DNA from: an uncultured bacterium
GTDB lineage: Bacteria > Fidelibacterota > Marinisomatia > SCGC-AAA003-L08 > JACNLC01
Assembly (NCBI GenBank): GCA_964527215.1
Contig: CAZGNZ010000001.1
Coordinates: forward strand, 129,276-193,275
DNA: 64,000 nt
Direction: 5' to 3'
The position numbers and the translations under genes are program-made. Shown one piece after another: positions 37,994 through 64,000 of the stretch (positions are counted from its first letter, which is position 1; the number at the start of each line of letters is the position of its first letter). Under the pieces are notes generated by a model. The model was given only the letters and a program-made list of their open reading frames with translations, had not been told where the DNA came from and did no database searches.

Positions 37994-38901
37994 TATTCTT
38001 CCTCCTTATTGTATAGTTTCATTGCCAGGCCCAGCAAACCGGCCAGAAGAATCGGTCCACTGAATCCTTTGAAAATACCATGCTGAATGGATTCAGTCAG
38101 GTGCGCGGGGCAGTCACTGGACAGTACCGGGAGGTCAACCTCCTCAAAGGGCACATTTGAGATGTACATCCAGCTGGTGCCGCCGACTTCATGTTCACCG
38201 TAAACATGATCCACATAGCGGTCCGGGTGTGTTCGAATACGTTCATGAGCGAGTTCAAGCAGCTCGCTCCTTTTTCCGAAAACCATCACTTCACGCGGGC
38301 AGATCGAAACGCAGGCCGGGAGTTCACCGGTTTCAATGCTCTGTTCAAAGCAAAGTCCGCATTTCATGACCTTGGGTGTCAGGGCATTGCTGTATTCATA
38401 CTGGGGAATTTGGAAGGGGCAGGCAACCATGCAGTAACGACAGCCGATACACTTGCTGGCGTCATATGTAACCGGCCCCTTCGGATTTTTTTCCAGAGCG
38501 CCTACAATACAGGCAGAAACACAAGCAGGATGCTCACAGTGCATGCACTGTACTTTTACATCCAGCGGGAAGCCGTCGATACCTTTTCCGGGATATCGGT
38601 TAACCACGGTGTACTGGTGGTCTGACGGCCGCCGAAATTCTTCCATAACAGAGGGATCGTCATACGAAGCAATGTCATCATGCGGCAGTCCATTGTTTTC
38701 TGCACATGCATATTCACATTTCCGACATCCGATACAAAGAGTCAGGTCAGACAGAACTCCTATCCTATCCGGATCAAGCATGGCATCATGCGTGGCCTTC
38801 TGGGCAGAAGTAATGTGCGTATTGGTGTGGGAAGGGACGGTGCTCGCTGCTGCAGTCCCGGATAAAAGTCCCACTGCCTTAAAGAATGATTTTCGATCCA
38901 T
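37993..38901 (-). CDS. Tat-exported 4Fe-4S ferredoxin-type subunit (NrfC/PsrB/HybA/HmcB-like) with a C-terminal TM anchor
   Basis: It has a Tat-like leader (MDRKSFFKAVGLLSGTAAAS, an RK variant). Cys clusters are CIGCRKCEYAC, CMHCEHPACVSAC, CIGCRYCMVACP and CGLC…CVSICP. The C-terminal helix is GPILLAGLLGLAMKL. Confidence 0.85.
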   Translation of the reverse strand: MDRKSFFKAVGLLSGTAAASTVPSHTNTHITSAQKATHDAMLDPDRIGVLSDLTLCIGCRKCEYACAENNGLPHDDIASYDDPSVMEEFRRPSDHQYTVVNRYPGKGIDGFPLDVKVQCMHCEHPACVSACIVGALEKNPKGPVTYDASKCIGCRYCMVACPFQIPQYEYSNALTPKVMKCGLCFEQSIETGELPACVSICPREVMVFGKRSELLELAHERIRTHPDRYVDHVYGEHEVGGTSWMYISNVPFEEVDLPVLSSDCPAHLTESIQHGIFKGFSGPILLAGLLGLAMKLYNKEEE

Positions 38902-38915
38902 GGTTGAATATTCCT

Positions 38916-40920: not shown

Positions 40921-41385
40921 TCATGATGTGTCCGTACCAGTCGTGTATCTCAGGTACCGCTTTAAATTCCTATATGGTTCAAGATTTCGATATACCTCAC
41001 ATTCTCTGCAGCTGGATTTCGATAAACTGTCTGCAGCAAGCCAACAGGGCCCGGTGATTGATGTGACTGCACTGCACTGTGCATTGCCTCCAGAATTGCA
41101 TCCCCGAATATTCCAGCAGGGAATCAGTGCCAGGAGCGCTTTTATGCCGGCAATATTCAATCCCTGCTTTTCGATCAGGAAGCGAATATGGGTCAGGCGC
41201 TTAATATCGTTCACCGAATACAAACGATGTTTTGTCCTGGTCCGCTGTGTCAGTATCAGCCCGTTATTTTCATAAAGCCGAAGCGTGTGAACAGAAACCC
41301 CGATTATTTCCGCTGCTATTCCAATGGTAAAAACCGGATGGTCTTCTTCCAGCAGTTTATTTTCTTTGCGAGGTTTCAAATCCAT
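40921..41385 (-). CDS. MerR-family transcription regulator with a C-terminal Cys-rich two-CW-like domain (paralog 1)
   Basis: The HTH is …FTIGIAAEIIGVSVHTLRLYENNGLILTQRTRTKHRLYS…. The tail is …LALIPCWNIRGCNSGGNAQCSAVTSITGPCWLAADSLSKSSCRECEVYR…. I chose the ATG at 41385; the track's TTG at 41391 is possible. Confidence 0.8.
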   Translation of the reverse strand: MDLKPRKENKLLEEDHPVFTIGIAAEIIGVSVHTLRLYENNGLILTQRTRTKHRLYSVNDIKRLTHIRFLIEKQGLNIAGIKALLALIPCWNIRGCNSGGNAQCSAVTSITGPCWLAADSLSKSSCRECEVYRNLEPYRNLKRYLRYTTGTDTS

Positions 41386-41404
41386 CAACAATAAACTATA
41401 AAGT

Positions 41405-44800: not shown

Positions 44801-44883
44801 TATGGTTCCACAGTTACTGTCTGTGACAGCAGGACAGTGAACATGCATATTATTACAATTGGTAGCAGTGGTGCATTTTTCAT
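41815..44883 (-). CDS. Cell-surface multihaem cytochrome c: 9 CxxCH motifs, beta-sandwich/FN3-like region, dockerin-like repeats and a T9SS C-terminal sorting domain
   Basis: It has a signal peptide (MKNAPLLPIVIICMFTVLLSQ) and an AGGAGG Shine-Dalgarno. Motifs are CGMCH, CLDCH, CESCH, CAYCH, CVRCH, CATCH, CMNCH, CTSCH and CTDCH. The dockerin-like pair is DVNGDFNIDILDIVQIV…/DWNGDGAIDILDVVAVV… (nt ~42391-42570). The C-terminal tail (nt ~41818-42084) is …SAAYPNPFNPVTTVDFSLPEDSRLEIIVYDAMGREITSLFSGNMPAGYHSMNWDASGQASGVYIIRLITETVTESRKVMLLK. Confidence 0.9.
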   Translation of the reverse strand: MKNAPLLPIVIICMFTVLLSQTVTVEPYGVSPREAGLDTLDIYEYRYTGLLNVGVETTMFLQGTSDAVLTAPVWTVLSAPAGSASVPGPSENPDEYTQVISFMPDLEGTYIIEFSDNGVMAEVTVNAAHYIGIDDGLCGMCHSDQHSEWEMTGHYSIFEEGMNGTLSDHYASYCLDCHTTGHDIYADNDGFDDWEFVFPDSADLVDNYGSEDGHLFPGVFDLLYDFYPDAMQLGRIQCESCHGPGSAHMGQTSDNRMVSNLESANCAYCHDDGHYHVYPEQWDISGHAAPTSYPTGPGRESCVRCHTGTGFIQYVDGVETDDPDFDPSYMPITCATCHEPHSAENMYQIRTLADVELNNGEMVTQGGSGKLCMNCHQGRRDADSYSDEPHSHYGPHYVPQADMLAATNAITFGLDLPTSPHLAGIENSCTSCHMGSPMTDDEGHSLLVGGHSFSVVTEEGVDNVAICTDCHGDVGDSFDEKMFYVDGNADLDGDGTPEGLQHEVHGLLDILGAMLPHSDDTTHYDPHDDVDETWSLTELKAAFNYDMVYYDHSYGIHNPAFTVALLNASITAMQNGALDGDIVSIDDIPNDQGGQVKVIWDAFVNDGIAPDPVEFYTIKRYDAYDDTWTLVGDHPADGSDRYSLVVPTLFDSTSVDNALTSFQVYSISQAGMIYESTVAEGYSVDNLAPTVPSGFLAVYGNQSVEISWDEPQDADFQYFTVYRNGELIGYSATSSFQDVGLSSGGEYMYSITATDVHENESENSPLESVMVGDAGDVNGDFNIDILDIVQIVSVILGHLEHTSYIDYAGDWNGDGAIDILDVVAVVAHILGNDVLRLNPVSEAQLQVGGGEMKITSDGEIAGFEISFQGDLVITSSNLPDGWLVDHSDTRLVGVNTNGSETEDILLYYTGLVQVETMLTADWSGNGVFAVVNSIPDEFALSAAYPNPFNPVTTVDFSLPEDSRLEIIVYDAMGREITSLFSGNMPAGYHSMNWDASGQASGVYIIRLITETVTESRKVMLLK

Positions 44884-45593: not shown

Positions 45594-48095
45594 TCAGAAA
45601 AAGGTGCCCACGATAATCAGTGTCAGAAGCAGGAAACCAACGATCAGGAAAATCGCACCAATAATCAGCAGAAGCTTTTTTAATACGGGATGGGTGGGGT
45701 TTATCAGGGCTTCCTGATATTCAGAATCACTGAGGAGGTTTTTTTCTCTGGGCCGCTCTTTGGCGAATCTTTCCTCTGTTACCCGGCCTGTGAATATGAC
45801 TTCATCCATGGGGAATGCGCCCGGGCGCAGATGGGTGTTGAAAAAATGCACCGTAAAAATGAATGCAGTTGCAAGCAGAGCTTCTTCCGAATGGATAATA
45901 TGCGCGGCATTGATCAGCCAGCCGGGAAATGCCCGTGCAAACTGTTCCGGAAACCAGAGTGTCAGACCGCTGATTCCAATAACAATCATGCCCCAGAAAA
46001 CTGCAAAGTAATCGAATTTTTCCCAGTATGTCCAGCGGCCGAACTCCGGTTCTTTTTTCCGCAATCCGATGAAATAAGCCAGATGATTGAAGAAATCAGA
46101 AAAATCCTGGAGATTTGGTACTAAACTGTCAGGTCCCCAGAACAGTCCTTTTTGTTTTCTCACTGTCGCTTTATAGATCAGCATGAATACATGGATGAAC
46201 ATAACGACAAACAGAATTACTGCAGCCACCCGGTGAGCCAATGCGGCAGCATGAAATCCGACAATATTGTGAACAAACCAGTTTGCCATCTCTGAATGAC
46301 TGTATTTTAGAGGCAGACCGGTTCCTGCCAGCACCAGAAACCCACCGGCCATGAAAAAGTGAAGAATTCGGTCGAACAGGTTGAATCTCTTTACGCGACG
46401 GCTGGTTTTTGGAGGAGGATGGATGGGGCCGTGTCTTAACCTGTGGATCATGAGTCGAATAAGCCAGAGCAGTGTATGGCCGCCAAATACAACAAACACG
46501 CCGCCAAGGAGCCAGATCATAAACAGATGTATGCCGTGAAGGACAGGGTTTTCCTTCTCAGTCATTGGAGTGTAATGTTCCAGATACTGAACAAAATTCT
46601 CACTGACATTTTCATGGCACTGGCTGCAGGTTTCAATAATGCGTTCTTTTCCTATACTGGAGGCCGGGTGATCGGAAGGCAGAATTGAATGATTGTCGTG
46701 ACAGGAGACACAGGTGGCAAATTCTTCACCCTGATATCCCAGCTGATACATTTGACCGTGATAAGATGTGTTGTATCCTTCCACGACATGTGCGTTCAGC
46801 TGAAATTTCATGGTTAGACTGCGGTCCGCATGGCAGCGGCTGCAAAGGTCAATGGTGGATTGTCCGATGAATTTCTCATCCGATTTCTGGATTCTGCGTT
46901 CATCGTGACACTCGATACAGCCCGGAGCTTCAAAATGACCCTTTTGTCTGGCGATATAATGAGAGGACTGCTCGTATTCTTTCTGCACGTCCGGATGACA
47001 GTCCGCGCAGGATTTTTCCAGAGCCTGGTCCTGGGAATGCTCCGGTGCCATGTAGTGATATGTATGGCAGTCTCCGCAGTTGGAGGCTTCCCCGTTTGCT
47101 ATTTTCTCCAGTTCGGTTCTGTGAATAATACCATGGGCATCATTTTCACCAATGATAAGATCCTGCCCGTGGCAGCGAATACAGACACGGTCCAGTTCGA
47201 TATCAAACACCGTGGTTCGAGTGGTACCCACCATTTCGGTCTCATGACCGGTGTGACATACAACACACGTTGTCATTCGGGGATCCTCAAGGCGGTCCGG
47301 CTGGTGGATGGATGCTTCATAGCCGGAATGACACTTCGTACAGACCATATCCAGTCTTGCAACAGACACTCGACTGTCCGGATCACGCGGGGAGAGTACT
47401 TTGTGGCTGGCGTGACAGTCAGAGCATATAGGCGCTTCAAGATTGCCCTGAGTCAGCTGTTCATAATGCCCGCTGTTGAAGTAGTTTTCAACGTTTTCCC
47501 GGTGACAGATTCGGCAGGATTCCGCGAGGTGAATTTTCCATCCAAATTCGGTATACTGCTGCTTTTCATGCTTATTGTGCGGTGAATGGCAGGAGACGCA
47601 GGTGACATCACCGGTCTGGGTGTCTTCATGCCAGTGTGCTGACTGCAGGAACTCATCCAGGATATCCTGATGACAGGTTCCGCAGACCTGCCGCGGCTGA
47701 CCTTGCCAACTGACTTTATGAGCTCCGTGGCAGTCAGAACAAGTCGGCAAAGCGGTATATCCTTTTGCCCGCAGCGGAGCGAAAAATCCGTCTATGAACT
47801 CTTCCTGGGCATCTTCATGACAGATACCGCAGTCAGGTATGATCAGACGTTCTTCATGAGGGAAATCATCTATGCCGTCTAAATCTTCATGACAGTCAAT
47901 GCAATCAAAGTCCTCATGCGGGGTTCCTGATAAATGATCCGATGTCACATGCAGAGACACTTCCACACCATGTTTCACTTGTGAGAGTTTCTCATCGTCA
48001 TGACAGGCTTCACAGGTTTCATTGTCCTGCATTAGAACTGGGGTCGTTAAAATTCCGACAAGACCGGCAAACAGCAGAATTCTATTCCGAAGCAT
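45594..48095 (-). CDS. Fusion protein: 17-haem cytochrome c plus C-terminal membrane b-type cytochrome domain (second CbcL-like paralog)
   Basis: It has a signal peptide and 17 CxxCH motifs by hand count (CEACH … CSQCH). TM helices with conserved His follow (…GIHLFMIWLLGGVFVVFGGHTLLWLI…RILHFFMAGGFLVLAGTGLPLKY…AHRVAAVILFVVMFIHVFMLIY…HIIHSEEALLATAFIFTVHFFNTHL…). Confidence 0.85.
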   Translation of the reverse strand: MLRNRILLFAGLVGILTTPVLMQDNETCEACHDDEKLSQVKHGVEVSLHVTSDHLSGTPHEDFDCIDCHEDLDGIDDFPHEERLIIPDCGICHEDAQEEFIDGFFAPLRAKGYTALPTCSDCHGAHKVSWQGQPRQVCGTCHQDILDEFLQSAHWHEDTQTGDVTCVSCHSPHNKHEKQQYTEFGWKIHLAESCRICHRENVENYFNSGHYEQLTQGNLEAPICSDCHASHKVLSPRDPDSRVSVARLDMVCTKCHSGYEASIHQPDRLEDPRMTTCVVCHTGHETEMVGTTRTTVFDIELDRVCIRCHGQDLIIGENDAHGIIHRTELEKIANGEASNCGDCHTYHYMAPEHSQDQALEKSCADCHPDVQKEYEQSSHYIARQKGHFEAPGCIECHDERRIQKSDEKFIGQSTIDLCSRCHADRSLTMKFQLNAHVVEGYNTSYHGQMYQLGYQGEEFATCVSCHDNHSILPSDHPASSIGKERIIETCSQCHENVSENFVQYLEHYTPMTEKENPVLHGIHLFMIWLLGGVFVVFGGHTLLWLIRLMIHRLRHGPIHPPPKTSRRVKRFNLFDRILHFFMAGGFLVLAGTGLPLKYSHSEMANWFVHNIVGFHAAALAHRVAAVILFVVMFIHVFMLIYKATVRKQKGLFWGPDSLVPNLQDFSDFFNHLAYFIGLRKKEPEFGRWTYWEKFDYFAVFWGMIVIGISGLTLWFPEQFARAFPGWLINAAHIIHSEEALLATAFIFTVHFFNTHLRPGAFPMDEVIFTGRVTEERFAKERPREKNLLSDSEYQEALINPTHPVLKKLLLIIGAIFLIVGFLLLTLIIVGTFF

Positions 48096-48327: not shown

Positions 48328-48912
48328 TTATTTCTTTTTATCCTCCGGTGTGGGATGAGCGACTTCTTTGATACGCTCAGCAAAAACGAACTTTTTATAG
48401 GTCGGGCTTTTTTCATTGTGACAGGATATGCAAAGAGCTTCATTTGGTTCAATGAGACCCACAGAAGCGCCGTCAGTAGTGCCGACCGTAATGGCCTTCA
48501 TCACTTTTTTAGATTTATATTCACTGCCCGGACCGTGACAGCCTTCGCAGCCGACGCCTTTCAAACCGGTCATCCGCTTGACATCCTTGGTGGGCTTGCC
48601 TTTGTCCGTTGTCTGGGCCCAGAACTTTTCATCCTTCACCTCGAACCCGCCTGATCCAAAACCAGTCGCATGACAGGAGAGACATTCAGGTGCCTGCCAG
48701 GCCGGTACATTCAGTTTCATCTCTTCTGCAATCTTCTTTGACTGTTCGGATTTCAGGGTTTCCATTGCACCAATATGCAGACCTTTTTCCCAGGCACCAA
48801 ACTGGTGTTTATGGCACATTTTGCATTTGGCTGAACCAACATATTCAAACTTTGCATCCTGTGCCCACATGAATGGTACACAGAGCAAAAAAAGTATCCA
48901 AAATCGTTTCAT
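48328..48912 (-). CDS. Tetrahaem cytochrome c, cytochrome c554-like
   Basis: MKRFWILFLLCVPFMWAQ is a signal peptide, followed by …VGSAKCKMCHK…W…H. Motifs are CKMCH, CLSCH, CEGCH and CISCH. I trimmed the start from the track (49026) to the ATG at 48912, which gives a proper signal peptide. Confidence 0.85.
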   Translation of the reverse strand: MKRFWILFLLCVPFMWAQDAKFEYVGSAKCKMCHKHQFGAWEKGLHIGAMETLKSEQSKKIAEEMKLNVPAWQAPECLSCHATGFGSGGFEVKDEKFWAQTTDKGKPTKDVKRMTGLKGVGCEGCHGPGSEYKSKKVMKAITVGTTDGASVGLIEPNEALCISCHNEKSPTYKKFVFAERIKEVAHPTPEDKKK

Positions 48913-48938
48913 AACTAACTTCCTCACTTTTTCATCCG

Positions 48939-49370
48939 TTAGAAAATGGGATTTTCCGCCCCATGGCACTGATGGCAGCCCATGGCAACTGGTCCATCGC
49001 TGTTTAGACTGTGGCACTGCCAGCATGTTTCCGCCTGGTCCTCGGAACCGTTGGGATCCATCCCTGCGCCGTGAAAATCATCAGTTCCGGATCTCAGATG
49101 ATCGATGGTACCCGGGTGGCCGCTGGCACCTCCGGCATGACACATGGTACATGAAACACCGGAATGTCCGCCATCCAGAAAAGTACCGTGACAGGTCTTG
49201 CATGACTCGAGTCCTTCCCAACCACGGGTCGCAAGCATCTGGCCGTGAAAATCAACACTGTTTTGATTCATCCAGGTGTCGCTGTGGGTATCTGGCTGAA
49301 CAGATTCAGTACAGGACCAGAAGCTCAGAGCGGTGACGATCAAAATGGTTAACGCGGTATATCTTTTCAT
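48939..49370 (-). CDS. Small tetrahaem cytochrome c lipoprotein
   Basis: MKRYTALTILIVTALSFWSC is a lipobox-type signal. Motifs are CKTCH, CTMCH, CWQCH and CHQCH. A GGAGG Shine-Dalgarno sits 6 nt upstream. The start was trimmed from the track (49466), and it lies directly after the upstream stop. Confidence 0.85.
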   Translation of the reverse strand: MKRYTALTILIVTALSFWSCTESVQPDTHSDTWMNQNSVDFHGQMLATRGWEGLESCKTCHGTFLDGGHSGVSCTMCHAGGASGHPGTIDHLRSGTDDFHGAGMDPNGSEDQAETCWQCHSLNSDGPVAMGCHQCHGAENPIF

Positions 49371-49371
49371 A

Positions 49372-50199
49372 TTAACCTCCATGACAGCGTTGGCAGTAGT
49401 GCGGCTGATGACAGGACTGACATACTTCGGGTGTGGATTCTGCGGCATCTGCATGCATTCCCGCATTGCCGTTGATTATGCCCCAGGTTGTCAGATTGTG
49501 ATCGGCTGGCATAATCATCCGCTGTATGTGACAGGACTGACAGTCATTTTCAATTTGATGGCAGGTCATGCATTCAACTGCATCCAGCCGGGCTTCCAAT
49601 CCGTGAGCCACAATATAGGCCGGTGGATGAGTACTTTTTTCAAAACCCGAATGGTGATGACAGTCATCGCAGAATTTTTCCGTATGGCACATGCTGCAGC
49701 TGGCGGCCTGCGGGTGATTGACGGACAGACCGTGGTCCTCATCCCAGGTGATGTCATGGCTGGCAGGTTCATGTGACTGATGGCATTGTGAACAGGCTGC
49801 CCTTGGCCATGGCTGGCGCAGCGCTTCACCGTCATCTGAGGTGATTCCGCTGTGGCAGGTTTCACAATTTGGTGTGGATGGCCGGTGTGCGGCATGGGAA
49901 AAGTCCACGCCGGATGTGGATCCCATCAGGGGATATGTGTCGGCCTCATCCACATTGGAATGGCATAGTTCACATTCATCTTCCACATCGTGACATTCGG
50001 AGCAGAAATCCATATCCGGCAGATATCCCGGTGTGAGAGATTCAGAGTCTGAAACACCGCTGTGACAGTAGTCGCAGGATAGTTCGACATCCGTAATATG
50101 AAGATCATGCGGAAATATGATGTGATCCGGATCCATTGAGAATCCGTAAGCCGCTAACAAGCTGACTGTCAGCAATGCTTTACAGAGTATACGAAACAT
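49372..50199 (-). CDS. Periplasmic 11-haem cytochrome c (c3/c7-type packing)
   Basis: MFRILCKALLTVSLLAAYG is a signal peptide. There are 11 CxxCH motifs in 275 aa (CDYCH, CSECH, CELCH, CETCH, CSQCH, CSMCH, CDDCH, CMTCH, CQSCH, CQSCH, CQRCH). A GGAGG Shine-Dalgarno precedes the gene, which overlaps the barrel-gene 3' end by 20 nt. Confidence 0.85.
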   Translation of the reverse strand: MFRILCKALLTVSLLAAYGFSMDPDHIIFPHDLHITDVELSCDYCHSGVSDSESLTPGYLPDMDFCSECHDVEDECELCHSNVDEADTYPLMGSTSGVDFSHAAHRPSTPNCETCHSGITSDDGEALRQPWPRAACSQCHQSHEPASHDITWDEDHGLSVNHPQAASCSMCHTEKFCDDCHHHSGFEKSTHPPAYIVAHGLEARLDAVECMTCHQIENDCQSCHIQRMIMPADHNLTTWGIINGNAGMHADAAESTPEVCQSCHQPHYCQRCHGG

Positions 50200-51358
50200 T
50201 GATACCTCCTCGACCGTCTTCATCATAATATGGGTTTTCAATATACATTCCATATACCTGGAAACTGAGATGGGCACAGGGTCTCCAGTTCAGTCTCAGC
50301 TGGGCACCAATGGTGTCCCGGGCTTCTATCAGATCGTCATAATCATAAGAATTCAGCGAGATACCCGCATTGGCACTGATGGTTTGGGTGATGTGTCGAT
50401 TTAATCCGGCAAACCAGCCAAGATTCTGATAATCACCGGATTGGCTGCTGATCAGACCAAACTGCAGACAGCGCCACTGAATGCTGCTGCTGAAACCCAT
50501 ATTGGTATCATCAGACATGCGGTATATCAGGCGATTGTACAGGGCAAACTCTGCAATCCTGCTTTGTACTCCAGCAGACAGCGTGGGGGCGACCAGAAGG
50601 TCTTCATCCAGTCCCGGGAATACATTTTCCGTGAAAATCTGACGCTGTTTTAAACTCAAAATCAATTCATGCTGATTGAACTGCCGGCTGAGTCTGAAAC
50701 GCATTGAATGGATATTTTCATCAGTCACATTGAATGAAAATTTGGCCCGGTAGCTGAAGGAAAGCAAATTCCGGCCGTTCAGTGAACCGCCGATAATCAG
50801 TGGGTCATCCAGTTCATCGTTGTCATACAGATAACTGATTACATTCAATCCAAATCCCATTCCACCGTCAGTTCCGGCTGTCCAGTCGGCTGCCATAAAC
50901 ATGGTTGGATCTTCTTCGGTCTCTGCAAACTGCGGGATCGATCCACCGCTCACTCCCAGCTTGCCGAATTTTCCCAGACACATGCTGTAACGGGCGCCGT
51001 CATACTTGGTGTTCGCAAATGAATTCCAGTAGTTGAGCCGCCCCAGATTCAATGTGCCGAATTTGCTGTACAGGGAAACATCAGCACTGTGAATCTGAAA
51101 TTCGTCGGTAAAGCGGTAATTCGGGGAGCCGTAGGACAAATCGGTTTTAAAGGAAACAAGACTGCCGTAGGACTGCTGATAGGATAGAAAGGTCCGGTAG
51201 TGAACAGTGTCATCCAGTGCATCTGAGCGGTACAGGTCGCCGGAGGTGTCGTTGAACATGTTCAGCCGGGGGGTGATCATGCTTTGGGTGATCGTGAGAT
51301 TCGGACCTCCGGCAAATCCAATCCCCGCAATGATGAGCAATACAAAAATTCTTTTCAT
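50180..51358 (-). CDS. Outer-membrane beta-barrel (porin-like) protein
   Basis: It has a signal peptide (MKRIFVLLIIAGIGFAGG). Alternating-polarity strands rich in Y/G/S/N run throughout (…YGSLVSFKTDLSYGSPNYRFTDEFQIHSADVSLYSKFGTLNLGRLNYW…). There are no Cys or haem motifs. The start was trimmed from the track. Confidence 0.7.
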   Translation of the reverse strand: MKRIFVLLIIAGIGFAGGPNLTITQSMITPRLNMFNDTSGDLYRSDALDDTVHYRTFLSYQQSYGSLVSFKTDLSYGSPNYRFTDEFQIHSADVSLYSKFGTLNLGRLNYWNSFANTKYDGARYSMCLGKFGKLGVSGGSIPQFAETEEDPTMFMAADWTAGTDGGMGFGLNVISYLYDNDELDDPLIIGGSLNGRNLLSFSYRAKFSFNVTDENIHSMRFRLSRQFNQHELILSLKQRQIFTENVFPGLDEDLLVAPTLSAGVQSRIAEFALYNRLIYRMSDDTNMGFSSSIQWRCLQFGLISSQSGDYQNLGWFAGLNRHITQTISANAGISLNSYDYDDLIEARDTIGAQLRLNWRPCAHLSFQVYGMYIENPYYDEDGRGGINVSYTL

Positions 51359-51443
51359 AATCTCATTCATCAAAAAGGTTGAAAGGGAGCAAACCCACAT
51401 TCATGGCATTTGCTCCCTGAAAAAGTTCGCTTTGGCGAAAGGC

Positions 51444-52394
51444 TTATTCGTAGGTGTAGTCGAACGAACCAGGCCAATTGTGGGATGTCAGATCATCAAA
51501 AATCATTGAATTGACACCAAATTTCAGGCTGGTGGCATCGTAACCGAGAACGGTCAGATAAGCGGTGATCATGGAAGATGTCTGTCCTGTCCAGCAGTAG
51601 GTGACTATGGTTTCATCGGGATTCAGATATTCCATTCCACCGGCGGCCAGGGTCAAGTCTTCTTTTATGCGGTGTGAACCTTCGATATGTCCGTAAAGAT
51701 CGACATCGGAAGCTCCCCAGTAGTTATTGATAAAATAAGCACCGGGATCATCCAGAACATCGCTGTACAAAATACCTTTGAATCCACCGGCCAGCATGGC
51801 TTCCACCCGCTCCTCAAGCAGGGCAGCACCATCAGCTGTGGAAGATTCCCAGTCAGGATAACCATATTCCATATCACTGGCGATATTGATGGATCCGGGA
51901 TATACCCAGGTATCATAACCGGATGCGCCATAACCCGTTTTACTGGACCAATTATCAAAATCAGAATGCCAGCTGCTCATTCCAAATTTCAGGACCTGAG
52001 CGCTGTAGCCCATGAGGCGCAGTGCCACAACAGCATGTCCGGCGGATTGCCCGGTATAGCAGACCACCAGAATATCTTCGCTGCCGGCGGGTTCGGCATC
52101 GTCAAGAATGGTGGCCAGTGAGCCATTGTGGGCTCCCGGGATATGACCGGTAGCAAAGACTTCAGCACTGCGGATATCAATGATGTAATAATCTTCAGGC
52201 AGACGGGCCAGATTCACCGCATCAGCAGCGACAATCCAGTCGGCCAGAATATCATCCATATCCATGTTATTGGCTTCCAGATAGGTCATCAGCGTGTTGA
52301 AATCACCTTTGTCGTCATCATCATCATCGGAACATCCGCTGAAGATGAACAGGCTCAGCACCAGTAACGGCAGGATATATTTCAAGCTTTTCAT
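51444..52394 (-). CDS. Periplasmic/outer-leaflet lipoprotein with two rhodanese (sulfurtransferase) domains
   Basis: It has a lipobox (LSLFIFSGC) and a poly-Asp linker. There are two GlpE-type active-site loops: …ILVVCYTGQSAGHAV… and …IVTYCWTGQTSSMITA…. Confidence 0.8.
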   Translation of the reverse strand: MKSLKYILPLLVLSLFIFSGCSDDDDDDKGDFNTLMTYLEANNMDMDDILADWIVAADAVNLARLPEDYYIIDIRSAEVFATGHIPGAHNGSLATILDDAEPAGSEDILVVCYTGQSAGHAVVALRLMGYSAQVLKFGMSSWHSDFDNWSSKTGYGASGYDTWVYPGSINIASDMEYGYPDWESSTADGAALLEERVEAMLAGGFKGILYSDVLDDPGAYFINNYWGASDVDLYGHIEGSHRIKEDLTLAAGGMEYLNPDETIVTYCWTGQTSSMITAYLTVLGYDATSLKFGVNSMIFDDLTSHNWPGSFDYTYE

Positions 52395-52435: not shown

Positions 52436-54046
52436 TCAGTTTACATGACAGGCCGATGTGCCGCACTCACCGCCGGCGGTGGGCATCACCGTCATGTTTG
52501 CTTCAATTTCATTCGGGTAATTGTTTTCAATGTAATCCATTGTGAGATAGATATCTTTATTTGCGGGATCACTATAGGTGTCCCCGGTATGATAATGACA
52601 GTTGGCGGCACAGGTTGTACCGTCGTAAAGAGGGGTATCACTTTCCGCCCAGGCATCATCCACCAGTGTCTGAGCAGTCCACTTGCGAACGTTGTGAGGG
52701 CTGGTGTATTCCCAGGTTTCAAACTGATTAAAATGGTTTTCCGGAAGTTCAGTCAGTCCGACTCCCCAGGCATCATAGGTATCTCGGGCAACAGGAATAT
52801 GCCTGACAAGGACCCAGCGGCTGTCGGCGTGTGCCAGCAGTGAGGGTGAGTAGTCTCCGGTGGGGTCATCGTGAGCCGGATTGTAGCCAATGCGAAATTC
52901 AGGATATTCAAGATAATCCCCGGCACCGGAATTGACATCGTCCTGACCGGCTACCGGACCGTAGCCGTCTTTCCAGATACCGGTTGTATGACAGTTATTA
53001 CAGTTATAATAAGGTTGTGAATGACAAACATAGCATGAAATATCATCGGCAAAATTATCACCGGGCCAATGTGCCTGGTGGTATAGGTTGCTGTCCGCCA
53101 GCGAAGGGCTGTGACATGCTGCATCGGTACACGTAGGCAGATCGTTGACAGTATACCGTGAGATGGGAGGATTGGCAAGTTCCGTTCCATCCCCGTGCAA
53201 ATCTTCATTGTGACAGGCCGTACAGGTATATCCTTTTCCCAGATGGACATCTTTCAGATTGCCAGTGATGCCGTCGTCGTCACCTTCATCGCCGAAATAA
53301 TCGACACCGATCCGGCTGCCGTGACAGGCGGTGCAGTTGTTTCGGAGCTCAGGTTCTCTTTTAAACTCATGATCTGCGAGAAAACCGCCGTGGACCGATT
53401 CCGGTCGACTGACATGACACTGACCGCAGGTGGTGTGACAGCTACCGCATTCACCTTCAAATTCTGCTTCCACCTCAGGATGATTGGAGAGATCCGGTTC
53501 ACCAAATGCACGCATTCCCACTTTGAATCTTTCACCCCAGAGTTTGGTGTGCATACTGTGTTCGTTCCGCTCAACAATATCCGTATGGCACAGACCGCAG
53601 GTTTCTTCAGGTGCGGCAGAAGGATCGCGTATCATTTCGGTATGTGCCAGTTCCATTGCGGCATGCCGGTCTTCCGAAGAAGTGGAAGCCGCCGTCACAA
53701 ACTGGGTTCCGCCGTGACAGCCGGCACAGCCAAGAACGGCATGGGTGGGATCAACATCATCAAATCCGGATTCGGAACTTTTCAAATCAATGAAAACTTT
53801 TTCCCAGGGTGCCAACGGCACCACAGCTCCGCCTCAGCCACCGCCACCGGCAGTTCCGCCACCCTCGTCAGGTGCAAGTTGCTGAAGTACTGCCTCATTG
53901 ATATGGCAGCTTTCGCAGGAAAAATCAAGGGTGTCGACATCAGTCTGTCCGACAGGATCGATTTTTTCACACGCTGAATATATTAAAAGCACCGGCGCAA
54001 TCCACAGCAGGATCAAAAACCCGGGCATCAACGAGGATCGATTCAT
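52436..54046 (-). CDS. Lipoprotein multihaem cytochrome c (9 CxxCH, 1 CX3CH and 2 CX4CH motifs) interrupted by one in-frame TGA at 53834-53836
   Basis: The 70-aa ORF (lipobox LLIYSAC, CESCH) and the 462-aa ORF (no signal peptide, 8 CxxCH) share one frame. They read …GGGTAGGGG-TGA-GGAVVPLAPWEK…. The ATG overlaps the MerR stop as ATGA. The gene is intact only if the UGA is recoded or read through; otherwise it is a pseudogene. Confidence 0.6.
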
Positions 54047-54489
54047 TTTCTGACCTCTTTGTTAGTGAATTCAAAGATTTGCTTAAGATGACCAACTTCA
54101 ATTGCAAGCCTATATACTTCGCACTTGTGACAGTCTGCATTCTGACATGTCTCACCGGTTACCTCCTGTGCCCAGCAAACCGTGTCGTTGGACATATAGG
54201 CAGGGCATTCAAGACGCTCCTCTTCTCCGCATGGCTTGATATTCCAGCACGGGATGAGTGCCAGCAAACGTCTGATACCGGCAATATTCAATTTGTTTTC
54301 CGTGATCTGACGCCGAATACATGCGATCCATTCCAAATCTATCTCGGAATACAATCGCCGCCCGGTTTCAGTACGATGGGGGATGAGCAGACCTTCCCGT
54401 TCATACAATCGCAAAGTTTCCGGAGAAATATCGAATTTTCTGGAAACCACACCGATTGTGTACAATGGTTCACTGGGATCCATCTTCAT
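54043..54489 (-). CDS. MerR-family transcription regulator with a C-terminal Cys-rich two-CW-like domain (paralog 2)
   Basis: The HTH is …YTIGVVSRKFDISPETLRLYEREGLLIPHRTETGRRLYS…. The tail is …LALIPCWNIKPCGEEERLECPAYMSNDTVCWAQEVTGETCQNADCHKCEVYR…. An AGGTGG Shine-Dalgarno lies upstream. Confidence 0.8.
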   Translation of the reverse strand: MKMDPSEPLYTIGVVSRKFDISPETLRLYEREGLLIPHRTETGRRLYSEIDLEWIACIRRQITENKLNIAGIRRLLALIPCWNIKPCGEEERLECPAYMSNDTVCWAQEVTGETCQNADCHKCEVYRLAIEVGHLKQIFEFTNKEVRK

Positions 54490-58441: not shown

Positions 58442-61400
58442 CTATCGTACTTCCAGCTCAATTAATTCAGGATACTGAATATTCAGTTTTTTCTGTCCCT
58501 GCCGGAATTCCAGATTCAGCCGGATGGACTGTTTATCTGTCTTCGAATCCAAATCTGTCAGGTGAATTTCCTGCACAAGATTCACAACCGGACCCGACAG
58601 TGGCGCTGACAGTTGGATCACATCACCGGCTTGACGGGTAAATGCCATTGATTTGGGAATCGTAATGGTGCCCAGAAGCTGATCGGCATCTGGCAGGGAG
58701 TCGGAATGGAGAACCAGCCGGACTGTGAATCGACCGTTGGAATCCGGCATGATGACAACCGGAGCAGTGTGACCGGCTGCACCTGTATGTGAATCCATTT
58801 CCGTATGAATGACTGCCGGGATCAAATTATCTATGACAGATGATTTCTGGGTATTCACGGGCGTTATCAGCAGGGTCATCAGGTTTGGCTGAGTCAGCCG
58901 TGATCCGGCATTGTGTATATCCACGCGGGAATGAATGCGTTCGGATTCAATGTTATATTCCCTGATCAGGAAATCGCTGACGGTCAGTGACCATCCGGCT
59001 ACCCGGTTAAAATCATCCTCGGCAGTTTGCATGCCGAGAATGGTCAGGTTGAGTTCCGGCTGCCAATTCAGCAGTCTGCCGATCTGGTTCAGTTTGATCA
59101 GCATCTGTGGCTGAATAGGCTTTCCGTCAATAAAATCTTCCCGGCTGACCGGGGTTTCCAGATATACACGATCCAACGGCGTGTGGACCCAGCGGTTCAT
59201 GCGTCCGATTTCGTCCCGTGTACCATCAGAATACTGTGCCTGCACCCGGCATTCCAGTCTGGTTACGGATCCTGTTTCTGCTGCATGCTGCACAAGGAAT
59301 GCACCCGTAATATCACCGGATATATTTTTACCGTTGACCGGAAGAGATAACGTAATCAGTCCGCCGTTCATCTCAGTTTTAAGAGGCTGATGATTGTAAA
59401 GGCTTTTCCCTTCAGCCCAGATAAATCCTTTGGGAGTCGGAATTTCAAATTCCAGTTTCCGAATACTCTGACTGCCGCTGATATGCAGCGGAATCCGGAA
59501 TTCCAGCGACGGCAGTTCAGCAGACAGTTCTTCGGAACTAAACTGCAGTTCAATACGCCGATTCAGACGGCGGCCTTCCGCTGTGGCATTATCGGCGATT
59601 GGCTGGTCCGGTCCTTTGCCGCGGGATGTGATGCGCTCACCATCGATTTTCGATTCGGATATCAGGAATTTCTGAATATTTTCCGCCCTTGCCCGGCTCA
59701 GTTCATAATTATTCTTATAAGCAGATCCGGACTGCACTGGAACCGAATCCGTATGCCCGGTTATTTCAAGCGTGATGTCGCTGTACAAATTCATCAGCCG
59801 GGCGATATTCCACAATTCGTTCATATCCACACTGCTCAGCCGGGCGGAGTTCGACTTGAAATGGAACCTTGCATTGATGTTCAGCGGGAGATTTTCTCTC
59901 AGGGTGAGAATCTCCGGTGTCTGCAATTCAGCATGCAGAATGGTTTCAGCCGATTCCTGACAGCCGGTTCCGGCTGCCTTCCCGGTTTTTATTTCTTCCG
60001 TTCGACTGCCGGGCAGAAGCGGACGGATTTCTGCCGGATAAATGCGATTTGCGCGAATACTCAGATCCAGTCGGTTTCCGCTGGTGAAAAACCCGCCGTA
60101 ACTCAGCACCGTCAGGCGGTCGGGAGCAATGCCATGCCGGTCCGTGAGCACCATTTTTACCTGTTCGCCAAACCGGTTTGTTCGAGTCAGCGCGGGAGAG
60201 TCCGGATTGGCGGAGTAAGTCAGGATATCCAGGTTTATGTGTTTTTGCCATTTCAGAAATTCTGCAGTTTCGTCAAGGGTTTCCAGAATTTCCGGACTGA
60301 AACGGTCTGAAAGCAGATTCAGACCTTCTGATTCAGTCAGCGATGAGATAACCAGGCCGCGCGCAGCAACGGCATATGATGCTTCAACCGGCTCGGATGT
60401 GTGAACGGTCCCTTCAGAATTCGTGTATTCAACATGCCCGCTGATTCGTCCGATATGAGGCAGAGGACCTTCCGCCGCGGGCGCAATCCGGAAGCGAAGT
60501 GTTTCATTAAAATGGTGCTGCATTCCGCCCAGCTGCCAGGTGATGAGATTATGGGCTGTCCGGCTTGCCGTGATCGGCTGACCCCTGAATTCAGCAGATT
60601 GACCGATATACCGGAAACCTTGCGGAATCGCGACTGACGCTGTTACCATCGAAAGCGGTGCTGAATGATGATACTCGAAATTCATTGTGACTGTGAGCTG
60701 ATCATTTTCAGCCTGATCGACCTGGGAGGCAACAAAGCGCAGCTCAATACGCCGATTCATGGCTCGGCCAGATTTTGTATGGTTCGATGCAACCGGCTGC
60801 GCAGCCCCTTTACCGAATGCGGCGATACGCTCCGGTGCAATGGAATAATTCTGAAGCAGATAGTTGCGGATGTTCTGTGCCCGGGCAGCAGAGAGTTCTT
60901 GGTTGTTTTTGTATGATTCCCTGATTGTTACCGGGACATTGTCTGTATGACCAATAATCTGCAGACTGATATTGTCCTGCAGGATCATAAAGCGGGCAAG
61001 CTTGGCTGCCTGAGCCAGATCATCGGGATGCAATACCGCACTTCCTGATTCGAAGTGATAATGGGTGCTCAGTTCAAAAGGCTCAAATTCGTTTAATTCA
61101 TAAATAACCGGACTGACTTTCAGCGAATAGCTGATCTCCGGTACCTGGCAGACATCCACATCCAAACTGCCGTGCTGCGGGGTTTCCAGTGCAAAATTGG
61201 CTTTGACCATTCCGCCGGGAATCATATCCACCTTCCGCATCCAGGGATTGTTCAGCTGAGCGTTGGATATGATGCGGCCCTCTGCATCTTCCGGCAGTGT
61301 GGCACGGTTGATCCGGACTGCATGGGCACCGGGAGCAACGTTTGGAATCGAGTACTTACCGTATTCATCCGATACAACGCGGATACCGTTTTCCATTACC

Positions 61401-64000
61401 AGTTCAACATACGGCAGTACCGGTTCAGCTGAGTTGTGCAGGCCGTCTTCATTATAATCATAGAAGACTTTTCCAAAAATGAATCCCCTGCTGGAGAAGC
61501 TGTCCGGTTTTACAAGTACTTCTGCTGTGACGGGTGCGGAGTAGATGATTGTTCCGCCGGTCTCTGTCCCTGCGACAGCCTCATTGATCCGGGTGCCGAC
61601 GGGTGCGTTCAGACCAATAACAGTGCGGTACTGCAGTTTGACTGAGCTGCCTGCCGGCAGTTCATCTGCCAGTTCCCAGCGCAGGAAAATCTGATCGGAT
61701 TGATCTGCAGTTTGTACTGGATCAGGAACCGGTTCACCATTCAGGTATGATGTTCCGGTTTTGTATTTAAATCCTTCGGGGAGCAAATCTTCAACAAACA
61801 GCTGCGTCAGATCCGTGGTTTCACTTTCATTTTGAACAGTGACTGTATAATTCACATAATCACCGGTGACAGCGGAACGGCGGCTTGCCTTTTTCTCTGC
61901 AGACAGGAAGGGAAGGGTCAGTATGGTGCCGGCATTGGTGGCGGGGTGATCACTGGTATATACCGAATCCTGGCCAGTTACCGCCATGGCAACATTTTCG
62001 ATGTCATAAATTCCGCCGGTAAATATATCGGATTCGATTCGGGTCCGGAAGGATACCGTATCCATTTCAGATTCAGCAAAATAGGGGGCAAAGAACCGGA
62101 GGGTGTTGGTAACGTCATCAAAAGAGTCAAACTGGATACCCTCGGAGAGGATAAGTGATTCAGGCAGGTATTCCAGGCCGTCCGGCAGCATGTCAATGAG
62201 CCAGGTGGTATCAGCTATCGGAAATGAATCTGTCCCGAATACGATGCGGTAGGACAATGTATCGCCCACATTTGCAGTGGTTTCCTGTACGGTTTTATAG
62301 GCGGTGAGTGACACACGGTTCAGTGCAATATTGGCATTGATGATGTAATTCCCGTCAACCAGTTCATTGAGCACCAGATCACCATTGCTGTAGGACGACA
62401 CTCCGTTGTAGATCAACTGGAGCTGATAATTTCCGGGATTCAGTTCCGTGAATGCATAGAATCCGGTGGCATCCGTCCAGGTTGTGTCATTCTCCATATC
62501 CTCCAGGAATGCACTGCGTCCCATGCCGTCATCCGGAACCGGGGTCAGAATCACGGGGATACCGGCTTCCTCTATCACTTCGCCGGTGACCTCGTCAATT
62601 ACCCAGCCGGAAATGGAAACCCAATTGGGAATAATAACATTGTCAGCCAGATCATCCTCGGAAATTTCCAGGATCTGACCCAATGTGATCGGGTTTCCGG
62701 ATTGGTCGAATACGGTAATATTAATGGTATAGGAATCCGGAAAATACACAGGTACAAGATAATCACCGGTGACACCGGTCGTATCTGATCCCAATGTTTC
62801 GCCGTTGGAATCCAGGATGGTTACGATAGCGCCCACGATAGGATTGCCCTGATAGTCAAGGACATCCCCGGCAATGGCACTGGGATAGAAAATCACCTGT
62901 GTCGTGTCATAAGCGAAATCTGTATCCGTGTAGTACGTGACAGCGTCCGCATTGGAAACGATGGTGGCATTCAGCACCACTTCCGACACCAGCTGTGAGT
63001 ACGCGGTGCCCTGCTGGGTCATAACGGTGACCAGATTGGGATCTATGGTTCCCCGGTCTGCAGTAAATGTTACGGGAACACTTCGCGGTACCGGATTGCC
63101 AAGGAAGGTTTTCACCGGTGCGATGAGTGTGCTGAAGTTCACGCCGTTACCGAGAATAGCGTTGGGAGATGCAAACAACTCCAGAGTCAGCGGAAGAACA
63201 TTGGTTGTGGTTGCAATATCATATGCACTGATGTTTTCATCACATACCGCAAACGCCTCATTGCTGACCTGCATGCCGTCCGGCAGATTAGGATCGAGCT
63301 GAACATCCACGTTGAATGAGCGGAAGTCTCCTGCAGGCAGTTCCGGGATCACCCAACGAACTTCACGACTGAACGAATCGTAGGTGCCGCTGTTGTCTGC
63401 AGAAACAAAGAACAGCTCGGGAGCGAGTGTATCCGAAACCGTAACATTGGTGGCGGTATCGGATCCGTTGTTCATCACCAGAATATTGTAGGTCAGGGTA
63501 TCGGTTGGAAATGCCTCGATGGGTCCCATTTTCTCCAGTACGAGATTTGGAGCTGAGATCACCTCTACCACGGCACTGTTCAAAGATTCACCGGTTTCCT
63601 CCGCCTGGACTGATACGACATTTTCATGCAGACTCAGATTGGCAATGGGTATGACAAATCCCGCAGTCAGTTCAATATTCACTGTTTCATCCGCATTCAT
63701 CTGGGGAATGACCCACTGAACGATTCCGTCAGTATGCGTGCCGTTGTGGGAGGAATTCAGGTATTCCATCGTATTGGGAAGGGTATCCGTGACAGTTATA
63801 TTCGTGACTGGAATAATATTATGATTGGATATGGATAGATTGTACAGAACGTCATCATATACCAGATAACTGTTTTCTTCAGTGGATTTATCGACAGTCA
63901 GAGAGAGTTCATATAAAACCGGATTCACGTTTATCAGCCAGGTGCCTGAGTCCAGTTCGATATTCCTTATTTCTCCGTACTGATTCGGCTGCACACCGGT
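58442..64000 (-). CDS. Giant multidomain envelope protein (over 1850 aa; N-terminus outside the window): DUF11-type repeats, Big/Ig-like and CarboxypepD_reg/SdrD-B-like domains, two canonical and two degenerate OmpA-like peptidoglycan-binding modules
   Basis: DUF11-like repeats include …VTNITVTDTLPNTMEYL…, …ATNVTVSDTLAPELFFV… and …FVEDLLPEGFKYK…. Canonical OmpA_C modules lie at nt ~60731-61063 (…IIGHTDNVP…NNQELSAARAQNIRNYL…NRRIELRFV) and ~59543-59866 (…ITGHTDSVP…NNYELSRARAENIQKFL…NRRIELQF). The frame is open to the window edge. Confidence 0.8.
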   Translation of the reverse strand, partial: TGVQPNQYGEIRNIELDSGTWLINVNPVLYELSLTVDKSTEENSYLVYDDVLYNLSISNHNIIPVTNITVTDTLPNTMEYLNSSHNGTHTDGIVQWVIPQMNADETVNIELTAGFVIPIANLSLHENVVSVQAEETGESLNSAVVEVISAPNLVLEKMGPIEAFPTDTLTYNILVMNNGSDTATNVTVSDTLAPELFFVSADNSGTYDSFSREVRWVIPELPAGDFRSFNVDVQLDPNLPDGMQVSNEAFAVCDENISAYDIATTTNVLPLTLELFASPNAILGNGVNFSTLIAPVKTFLGNPVPRSVPVTFTADRGTIDPNLVTVMTQQGTAYSQLVSEVVLNATIVSNADAVTYYTDTDFAYDTTQVIFYPSAIAGDVLDYQGNPIVGAIVTILDSNGETLGSDTTGVTGDYLVPVYFPDSYTINITVFDQSGNPITLGQILEISEDDLADNVIIPNWVSISGWVIDEVTGEVIEEAGIPVILTPVPDDGMGRSAFLEDMENDTTWTDATGFYAFTELNPGNYQLQLIYNGVSSYSNGDLVLNELVDGNYIINANIALNRVSLTAYKTVQETTANVGDTLSYRIVFGTDSFPIADTTWLIDMLPDGLEYLPESLILSEGIQFDSFDDVTNTLRFFAPYFAESEMDTVSFRTRIESDIFTGGIYDIENVAMAVTGQDSVYTSDHPATNAGTILTLPFLSAEKKASRRSAVTGDYVNYTVTVQNESETTDLTQLFVEDLLPEGFKYKTGTSYLNGEPVPDPVQTADQSDQIFLRWELADELPAGSSVKLQYRTVIGLNAPVGTRINEAVAGTETGGTIIYSAPVTAEVLVKPDSFSSRGFIFGKVFYDYNEDGLHNSAEPVLPYVELVMENGIRVVSDEYGKYSIPNVAPGAHAVRINRATLPEDAEGRIISNAQLNNPWMRKVDMIPGGMVKANFALETPQHGSLDVDVCQVPEISYSLKVSPVIYELNEFEPFELSTHYHFESGSAVLHPDDLAQAAKLARFMILQDNISLQIIGHTDNVPVTIRESYKNNQELSAARAQNIRNYLLQNYSIAPERIAAFGKGAAQPVASNHTKSGRAMNRRIELRFVASQVDQAENDQLTVTMNFEYHHSAPLSMVTASVAIPQGFRYIGQSAEFRGQPITASRTAHNLITWQLGGMQHHFNETLRFRIAPAAEGPLPHIGRISGHVEYTNSEGTVHTSEPVEASYAVAARGLVISSLTESEGLNLLSDRFSPEILETLDETAEFLKWQKHINLDILTYSANPDSPALTRTNRFGEQVKMVLTDRHGIAPDRLTVLSYGGFFTSGNRLDLSIRANRIYPAEIRPLLPGSRTEEIKTGKAAGTGCQESAETILHAELQTPEILTLRENLPLNINARFHFKSNSARLSSVDMNELWNIARLMNLYSDITLEITGHTDSVPVQSGSAYKNNYELSRARAENIQKFLISESKIDGERITSRGKGPDQPIADNATAEGRRLNRRIELQFSSEELSAELPSLEFRIPLHISGSQSIRKLEFEIPTPKGFIWAEGKSLYNHQPLKTEMNGGLITLSLPVNGKNISGDITGAFLVQHAAETGSVTRLECRVQAQYSDGTRDEIGRMNRWVHTPLDRVYLETPVSREDFIDGKPIQPQMLIKLNQIGRLLNWQPELNLTILGMQTAEDDFNRVAGWSLTVSDFLIREYNIESERIHSRVDIHNAGSRLTQPNLMTLLITPVNTQKSSVIDNLIPAVIHTEMDSHTGAAGHTAPVVIMPDSNGRFTVRLVLHSDSLPDADQLLGTITIPKSMAFTRQAGDVIQLSAPLSGPVVNLVQEIHLTDLDSKTDKQSIRLNLEFRQGQKKLNIQYPELIELEVR

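Follow-up and report, generated by a model that had tools for sequence, protein, structure and literature searches.

Multihaem c-type cytochromes that contain selenocysteine (Sec) have been known since 2026, when MccSep/ExtKL (GSU2937-2936) of Geobacter sulfurreducens was described (Mihara et al., Sci Adv 2026, PMC13510729; PDB 9wt8/9wt9; NCBIfam NF040886). It is the only characterised multihaem selenoprotein. MccSep carries five haems and a C-terminal Ig-like domain, with Sec325 in a D-G-U-P loop and Cys239 ligating the active-site haem (PMC13510729). The enzyme is a polysulfide and selenite reductase that is essential for the respiration of elemental sulfur (S0). It occurs in Desulfobacterota and Nitrospirota, is encoded beside the rhodanese lipoprotein ExtH and the porin ExtI, and its family was defined by DIAMOND matches to the G. 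sulfurreducens protein (PMC13510729). Here we analyse a gene for a lipoprotein multihaem cytochrome c that is split by a single in-frame UGA. The gene lies on the minus strand of a 64,000-nt stretch of DNA from an uncultured bacterium of the Marinisomatia (contig CAZGNZ010000001.1, positions 129,276 to 193,275); this whole stretch is called the window throughout. Judged from sequence comparison, the UGA at 53836-53834 is very probably a selenocysteine codon, and the family to which the gene belongs appears to be unrelated to MccSep. Our data indicate a rhodanese-coupled multihaem cytochrome selenoprotein family that is widespread, mis-annotated and apparently undescribed.

The cytochrome gene and its in-frame UGA

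A first-pass annotation of the window had reported the UGA and a hairpin shortly after it, and had left selenocysteine insertion, readthrough, and a fresh nonsense mutation or assembly error as possible readings, without ranking them. Its coordinates for the UGA, the ATG and the hairpin were all correct on re-reading, and so was its CESCH motif. The features of the gene are listed here with the evidence for each in brackets.

52436 to 54046, minus strand: predicted selenoprotein gene of 536 codons for a lipoprotein multihaem cytochrome c with Sec codon 71 (translation and read-through homologues)
53969 to 54046, minus strand: signal peptide with lipobox-type Cys, ...LLIYSA-C26 (sequence reading and N-termini of 70 loci)
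53903 to 53917, minus strand: haem-binding motif 1, C44-E-S-C-H48, before the Sec codon (sequence reading)
53834 to 53836, minus strand: in-frame UGA, codon 71, in the motif G-G-G-G-U-G-G (aligned codon in homologues)
53808 to 53822, minus strand: putative selenocysteine insertion sequence (SECIS) element with a 6-bp stem and a GUU loop, GGUGCC-GUU-GGCACC (comparison of 69 loci)
52445 to 53728, minus strand: eleven further haem-binding motifs, namely 8 CxxCH plus CTDAACH, CAANCH and CGTSACH (motif reading)

The start codon is the ATG at 54046, which is preceded by a Shine-Dalgarno-like AGAGG (sequence reading). At the N-termini of the 70 loci, a small residue followed by Cys and D/E is the pattern common to all homologues. 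Between the CESCH motif (residues 44-48) and the TGA lies the Gly-rich stretch GGGTAGGGG. Past the TGA, the frame goes on as GGAVVPLAPWEK... for 465 codons, which brings the total to 536, and the gene ends with a TGA stop at 52438-52436. The continuation had earlier been given as 462 aa in the same frame; the frame stands, whereas the length applies only to a count from the GTG at 53824, 9 nt past the UGA, where open reading frame (ORF) finders begin a 462-aa ORF. Databases annotate the gene as two ORFs of 70/64 aa and 462 aa. It had been observed correctly that the downstream part lacks a signal peptide of its own. This holds across relatives, and the GTG used by the gene callers is the conserved Val codon of G-G-x-V.

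The earlier number of eight further CxxCH motifs is right as a canonical count, to which three non-canonical motifs have to be added. The protein has 12 haem-binding motifs in total, of which 11 are conserved across relatives (10 of the 11 downstream ones). All 25 Cys residues of the cytochrome are either the lipobox Cys or haem-motif Cys, so that there is no free Cys. The non-canonical motifs (52445-53131, minus strand) are a CX4CH at residues 306-312, a CX3CH at residues 479-484 and a C-terminal CX4CH at residues 528-534. The CX3CH spacing is invariant in the family, and the C-terminal CX4CH is present only in some members.

Conservation of the UGA codon and its replacement by cysteine

Homologues were searched with the fused protein, in which the stop position was given as X. 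Of the 120 best homologues, nearly all span just 83-86% of the query, starting at (M/V)xPLxPWEK, which means that gene callers cut these proteins exactly after the UGA site. From 586 relatives found, 80 loci, each from a different GTDB species, were taken and translated upstream in frame. In the resulting orthologue alignment, a check that the first-pass annotation had proposed, the codon aligned with the UGA of the window is TGA in 71 of the 80 loci and TAA or TAG in none. Of the other nine loci, two are cut short; Cys occupies the position in three (L045, L061, L072), and in four (L013, L049, L055, L057) it is taken by neither Sec nor Cys. All 71 TGA loci encode a lipoprotein signal and one CxxCH upstream of the TGA. 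Protein identity among them is only 35-55% and they come from many phyla, and the frames downstream are intact and conserved. The site has the conserved motif G-[G/E]-G-*-G-G-x-V-x-x-L-E-x-W-E-K in the 71 loci. The earlier concern that Gly-rich surroundings are unusual for a catalytic Sec falls away for this gene: the core G-[G/E]-G-U-G-G is a conserved signature of the family.

The carriers belong to Neomarinimicrobiota, Lentisphaeria, Calditrichota, KSB1, Deferribacteres, Ignavibacteria, Krumholzibacteriia, Eisenbacteria and others, many of them from stratified or sulfidic waters such as the Black Sea and Saanich Inlet. Searched against 1.84 billion cluster representatives, the family gave 771 clusters at E<=1e-3, 331 at E<=1e-10 and 144 at E<=1e-30.

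Residues at the Sec column were also compared in the 47 relatives from this search that are called full-length. Cys is the commonest of them (16), followed by Trp (6), Tyr (4) and Arg, Leu and Ala (3 each), with others fewer. A single nucleotide change of UGA reaches the residue found in 31 of the 47 (Cys, Trp, Arg, Leu, Ser, Gly), a pattern as expected for repeated loss of a Sec codon. Examples of the Cys type are P0017 (PG-C-GGEVVPL), P0116 (GEG-C-GGAVSPL), L061, L072, P0129 and P0134, and the full-length Cys-type homologues are single proteins.

A covarying hairpin downstream of the UGA

The hairpin at 53822-53808 begins 11 nt after the UGA. For comparison, the 48 nt that follow the UGA were aligned gap-free for 69 loci. 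The hairpin is present in the window's register in 57 of these, with 21 distinct stem sequences, and all but one of the 57 have the GUU loop (56/57). Among the six core pairs (columns 15-20 with 24-29), the loop-closing one, 20-24, is formed in 76% of the sequences and the other five in 84-88%. All but one of the six show double-sided changes, with 3-30 sequences affected per pair. Pair 17-27 is CG in 29 sequences, UA in 24, AU in 4 and GU in 2; pair 18-26 is UA in 39, GC in 15 and AU in 4; and pair 16-28 is GC in 46, CG in 9 and UG in 3. The covariation score is 0.316, compared to 0.122 +/- 0.012 for shuffled alignments (0/500 reach 0.316), and slid registers give at most 0.143. Because the stem lies in codons, its compensation is also visible as amino-acid swaps, from V-V-P-L-E-P to V-E-P-L-A-P or V-A-P-L-E-P.

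Seven loci have an 8-bp hairpin that is shifted by about 3 nt and carries a GGA loop. A clade of three loci (L047, L048, L050) keeps the UGA and has a 7-bp hairpin of its own, UUCCUGA-GGU-UCAGGAA. The hairpin is weakened in Cys-type loci and missing from loci with neither Sec nor Cys. An extended lower stem (columns 11-13 with 31-33) was considered and is not supported, as most sequences are unpaired there. In L047, L048 and L050 the peptide after the UGA differs as well and reads U-G-D-A-G-L-I-P-E-V-Q-E-Y-E-K (about 2986-3033 in L047 and L048, 2157-2204 in L050); in this sub-clade, peptide and SECIS have evidently co-evolved.

The minimal upper stem-loop of Escherichia coli fdhF (Liu et al. 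1998; Zinoni et al. 1990) reportedly lies 11 nt past the UGA and has G/U in its apical loop. As in this element, the hairpin of the window is placed within the coding sequence, with a spacing of 11 nt and a loop in which G is followed by U (GUU), and its stem is held by compensatory changes in the window family. The fdhF SECIS is longer than this hairpin, which comprises 6 bp and a 3-nt loop and lacks a bulged U.

On the level of sequence, a conserved UGA, a covarying hairpin and Sec/Cys pairs together are the classical comparative signature of a bacterial selenoprotein gene. Selenocysteine insertion, about which the first-pass annotation had been hesitant, is thus strongly supported by the TGA in 71 of 80 loci, by Cys in homologues and by the compensatory changes in the hairpin.

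A tandem-rhodanese gene accompanies the cytochrome gene

The gene that follows the cytochrome gene in the window is the following.

51444 to 52394, minus strand: tandem-rhodanese lipoprotein with an active-site Cys in both domains, CYTGQS and CWTGQT (Pfam Rhodanese, 2 stretches, E 2e-20)

In 73 of the 80 loci, a rhodanese gene comes immediately after the cytochrome gene. When only loci with room for it are counted, it is present in 71 of 72 with Sec or Cys versus 0 of 4 without either (Fisher p 4e-6, phylogeny ignored). Natural cytochrome::rhodanese fusions also exist, P0164 and P0189 (two rhodanese domains); P0164 begins just past the Sec site and has its two rhodanese domains at the end. As far as gene order and sequence can tell, the comparison shows the pairing with a tandem-rhodanese gene to be obligatory, and the rhodanese association is the strongest functional clue. 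As separate observations, the downstream rhodanese ORF is much longer in L039, L040 and L062, with about 620-820 codons between stops, and several truncated homologues are named 'thiosulfate/3-mercaptopyruvate sulfurtransferase' by the Joint Genome Institute (JGI) and have no rhodanese Pfam match.

Probable selenocysteine insertion and its alternatives

In the explanation that we favour, SelB acting on the hairpin at 53822-53808 would recode the UGA as Sec, and 54046-52436 would be one gene. The product would be a lipoprotein cytochrome c of about 57 kDa with 12 haem-binding motifs, in which Sec71 would be the only free chalcogen nucleophile. As the best explanation overall we hold it with good confidence, a rating that mainly reflects the Sec claim. 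Several observations weigh against it. Neither selA, selB and selD nor tRNA-Sec was found within the 64-kb window, where ARAGORN detected no tRNA. Rfam gave no match over the whole window at gathering thresholds, and only noise around the UGA site at E<=10. About 1.6% of the TGA triplets on the minus strand have a perfect 6-bp hairpin 8-14 nt downstream, and the local folding z-score of -0.67, for the single window sequence, is unremarkable; the hairpin alone is weakly beyond chance, and the decisive support is therefore comparative. As to the rhodanese, the four loci without Sec or Cys may stem from only a few independent lineages, in the Sec-type locus L078 no rhodanese is seen within 1.4 kb, and the fusion P0189 has Tyr at the Sec column. 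The functional part, which is set out below, draws on the gene neighbourhood and on analogy with a non-homologous enzyme.

The UGA might instead be read as a standard amino acid, that is, as Trp, Cys or Gly by a near-cognate tRNA or as Cys by a tRNA-Sec-like tRNA-Cys, with the hairpin as a stimulator only. We consider this very unlikely. It would agree with the lack of Sec machinery in the 64-kb window and with the presence of Cys, Trp and Gly at the Sec column, each in some relatives. However, the conserved UGA, the Cys homologues and the covarying G/U-loop hairpin at the fdhF-like distance of 11 nt correspond to the standard SelB-dependent signature, and selA, selB and selD have been reported for KSB1, one of the carrier phyla (PMC9012183). 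Readthrough as the first-pass annotation had put it is conceivable as such, yet it leaves both the Sec/Cys pattern and the SECIS-type hairpin unexplained. A division into two genes, a 70-aa one-haem lipoprotein ending at the UGA and a separate cytochrome from the GTG at 53824, is what gene callers annotate in every database, and the GTG is indeed found 9 nt downstream of the UGA. Such a second product would have no signal peptide and hence no haem loading in the periplasm, its start would be the conserved Val codon of G-G-x-V, and the full-length Cys-type homologues are single-chain. In the 71 loci the two parts are always in frame with TGA alone between them, whereas separate genes would give mixed stops and frames, and this division seems to us extremely unlikely.

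Changes or errors at the codon itself have hardly any probability. A recent nonsense mutation that left a pseudogene, for example GGA to TGA in the Gly run, is brought to mind by the position of the TGA amid Gly codons, one substitution away from the Gly codon GGA; it is refuted by the same TGA at the same codon in 71 loci at 35-55% identity with conserved downstream frames. For an assembly or sequencing error at 53834-53836, equally improbable, nothing speaks beyond the prior possibility. Two independent Logan assemblies from other runs (L081, L082) reproduce 9.4 kb and 4.4 kb around the UGA site with 0 mismatches to the window, TGA included, L081 was seen in 14 samples, and orthologues share the codon. 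Both of these readings, which had been put forward earlier as one, are accordingly rejected by the conservation and by the two identical assemblies. Reassignment of UGA in the genetic code, to Gly (code 25) or to Trp (code 4), would in the case of code 25 suit a UGA within a Gly run. In the window it is refuted, since TGA ends 19 of 40 well-supported genes, including the cytochrome gene, and is the commonest ordinary stop codon; its probability is practically nil. No other convincing gene with an in-frame TGA was found in the window. The pair 13745-14740 and 14750-15991 was considered as a split TGA gene and consists of two ordinary exopolysaccharide genes.

Gene neighbourhood

The cytochrome gene and its neighbours are all on the minus strand.

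54043 to 54489, minus strand: MerR-family regulator, whose TGA stop overlaps the cytochrome ATG (ATGA; Pfam MerR_1, E 5e-18)
50180 to 51400, minus strand: conserved 406-aa protein with a signal-like N-terminus (homologue at the same position in 23 loci)
49372 to 50277 and 48328 to 49026, minus strand: two multihaem cytochromes, one of them of 301 aa (Pfam, NCBIfam)
45594 to 48095, minus strand: multihaem cytochrome::cytochrome b fusion (Pfam, NCBIfam)

Through the ATGA overlap, the cytochrome gene is translationally coupled to the MerR-type regulator, and such a regulator is found upstream in 42 of the 80 loci. Past the cytochrome gene, the order is rhodanese, 406-aa protein, two multihaem cytochromes and the cytochrome::cytochrome b fusion. 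In 34 loci, the 301-aa cytochrome has a syntenic homologue. The two cytochromes and the cytochrome b fusion are likely the electron supply. For the 406-aa protein, Pfam and NCBIfam gave no match and a word-index homologue search returned only the protein itself; the single-sequence AlphaFold 2 (AF2) model has a predicted local distance difference test (pLDDT) value of 31 and is unusable. The protein, encoded between the rhodanese and the following cytochrome, may be part of the outer membrane, and by gene position alone it is reminiscent of ExtI, the porin in the ext cluster of Geobacter.

Further redox genes lie beyond this group. The regions 35620-40895 and 45594-48095 (both minus strand) hold two multihaem cytochrome::cytochrome b (FdhC/b561-like) fusions and an HmcA/HmcB/HmcC-like (HybA/NrfD-type) module, which are probably quinol-linked complexes feeding periplasmic cytochromes. 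The 1022-aa multihaem cytochrome encoded at 41815-44883 (minus strand) has a dockerin and an FlgD-Ig-like domain as well as a type IX secretion system (T9SS) C-terminal sorting domain, which suggests export to the cell surface by type IX secretion. A second MerR/HspR-like regulator is located before it at 40921-41391.

Proposed function and structure

Structure was considered with an AF2 model of the Cys-type orthologue P0017, which is haem-free and has a pLDDT of 70.5. The Cys loop, residues 63-70, falls below a pLDDT of 50 and has confident segments on either side. By this model, the Sec71 loop (G-G-G-U-G-G) is probably flexible and joins an N-terminal one-haem module to the multihaem body. 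A bolder idea, which we hold to be unlikely, is that Sec71 itself fills the distal axial position at a haem (a His/Sec haem). The substitution pattern lends it no support, in that relatives with neither Sec nor Cys show no enrichment of His or Met within +/-3 residues of the column (11 vs 12.9 expected).

As a tentative proposal, to which we give somewhat less than an even chance, the protein might be a rhodanese-coupled, Sec-dependent sulfane-sulfur reductase. The rhodanese lipoprotein would take sulfane sulfur as a persulfide from polysulfide, S0 or thiosulfate. This sulfur would be passed to Sec71, or Sec71 would attack the substrate directly, and the Se-S adduct would then yield sulfide on taking up electrons from the haems. 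The haem chain itself would be fed from the quinone pool via the neighbouring cytochrome b-fused and Hmc/NrfD-type modules. Selenite is a possible alternative substrate, and the reaction might alternatively run in the reverse, oxidative direction.

With still more reserve, we suggest that the family could be a second, independently evolved class of multihaem cytochrome c selenoenzyme. In such an enzyme, Sec on a flexible Gly-rich arm would exchange sulfur with the tandem rhodanese, and a wire of 11-12 haems would reduce or oxidise the adduct. It would act as a molybdenum-independent respiratory enzyme for polysulfide, S0 or thiosulfate, and could account for the dissimilatory sulfur metabolism that has long been suspected, though not assigned, in Marinimicrobia and allied uncultured phyla of oxygen-deficient and sulfidic waters.

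Other features of the window

A 3.2-kb region at 19560-22760 (plus strand), inside an exopolysaccharide gene cluster, has no long ORF; its plus strand is strongly C-rich, with a GC skew of -0.26. The region is built from 7 copies of a unit, about 435-509 nt long, whose core reads CCCATCCCAAACCCCCACCCACCTCCGGGGAATACGCCATATGGCA..., and two unit variants alternate. The longer variant gives sub-threshold matches to the Rfam Acido-Lenti-1 RNA at 20531-20576 and 21956-22001 (28 bits vs a gathering threshold of 37). The copies may represent small-RNA genes arranged in an array, or repeats with a regulatory role.

At 58442-63994 (minus strand), an ORF of at least 1850 aa encodes two OmpA-like peptidoglycan-binding domains and DUF11 repeats. 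The GTG called as its start lies 7 nt from the end of the window, and the gene may run past that end. An adjoining gene encodes a 1030-aa protein that weakly matches DUF2490, an outer-membrane-type family.

Extent and significance of the family

In hundreds of genomes, annotation pipelines split the gene into an ORF of 64-70 aa and one of about 450 aa that lacks a signal peptide. Due to this split annotation, the selenoprotein is invisible in current catalogues. The family comprises 586 relatives among GTDB species representatives and 144-331 clusters at 50% identity. No NCBIfam model for it was found, and it is also absent from the searched cytochrome and haem entries of the 2026 selenoproteome review (PMC13188914). 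Within the searchable library, neither a description of this family nor a Sec cytochrome from Marinimicrobia, Calditrichota or related groups turned up in the literature.

Abundant Marinimicrobia of the Black Sea and Saanich Inlet are among the carriers, and their sulfur metabolism has been described as 'unspecified' (PMC8359478). A metagenome-assembled genome highlighted in that study, NIOZ-UU73 (L015), carries the cytochrome-rhodanese pair. For sulfur cycling in oxygen-minimum zones, the gene pair offers a candidate enzyme and predicts a need for selenium. The combination of selenium and multihaem chemistry, experimentally shown only in 2026 with the MccSep of Geobacter, appears to have at least two origins, each beside a rhodanese.

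Comparison with known selenoproteins and sulfur enzymes

In several respects the window protein resembles MccSep. Both are periplasmic multihaem c-type cytochromes whose gene is split by an in-frame UGA with a SECIS-like hairpin. In both families the Sec type prevails and some members are of the Cys type, a rhodanese-like lipoprotein and further cytochromes adjoin, and the carriers are organisms linked to sulfur cycling. However, the two differ in sequence and design. Neither the window protein (phmmer) nor the family profile matched 9wt8/9wt9 at E<=10 in a library that included 9wt8, and the NCBIfam model NF040886 (ExtKL) did not match the window protein, P0017 or P0116 at E<=10. The window protein has 12 haem-binding motifs (11 conserved) instead of five haems. 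Its Sec is N-terminal, at residue 71 of 536 in a G-U-G-G context, whereas that of MccSep is found in the D-G-U-P loop of its C-terminal Ig-like domain. No conserved non-haem Cys is comparable to the haem-ligating Cys239, and the protein is a lipoprotein, where MccSep is soluble in the periplasm. Carriers also differ, being Marinimicrobia, Calditrichota, the FCB group and relatives in the one case and Desulfobacterota and Nitrospirota in the other. Membership of the MccSep/ExtKL family is ruled out by the lack of homology, the motif count, the position of Sec and the missing equivalent of Cys239.

Pfam identifies only generic multihaem domains in the window cytochrome. Among the searched entries of the 2026 review of prokaryotic selenoproteomes, those related to haem are only ExtKL, the GSU2204 family, the UshA-like PCGU protein and an OTR-type cytochrome (PMC13188914). 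Like the proteins of TIGR04315 (OTR octahaem, of the tetrathionate-reductase family), NF041198 (UshA-like) and NF041027 (GSU2204), the window protein is a bacterial protein with haem or CxxCH motifs and, in its case, a predicted Sec. None of these three models matched the window protein, P0017 or P0116 at E<=10; weak NF041198 matches were found only on two neighbouring cytochromes and not on the selenoprotein gene.

The sulfur enzymes TsdA and SoxAX, with a His/Cys-ligated haem, and the Sud-Psr polysulfide system of Wolinella (PMC13510729) have no sequence relationship to the window protein, and its Sec column is without His/Met enrichment. The likeness that we infer lies in the chemistry: as in these enzymes, a chalcogen nucleophile near c-type haems would act on S-S bonds. 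With Sud-Psr, the window system would in addition share a dedicated rhodanese-type carrier that delivers sulfane sulfur to a respiratory reductase.

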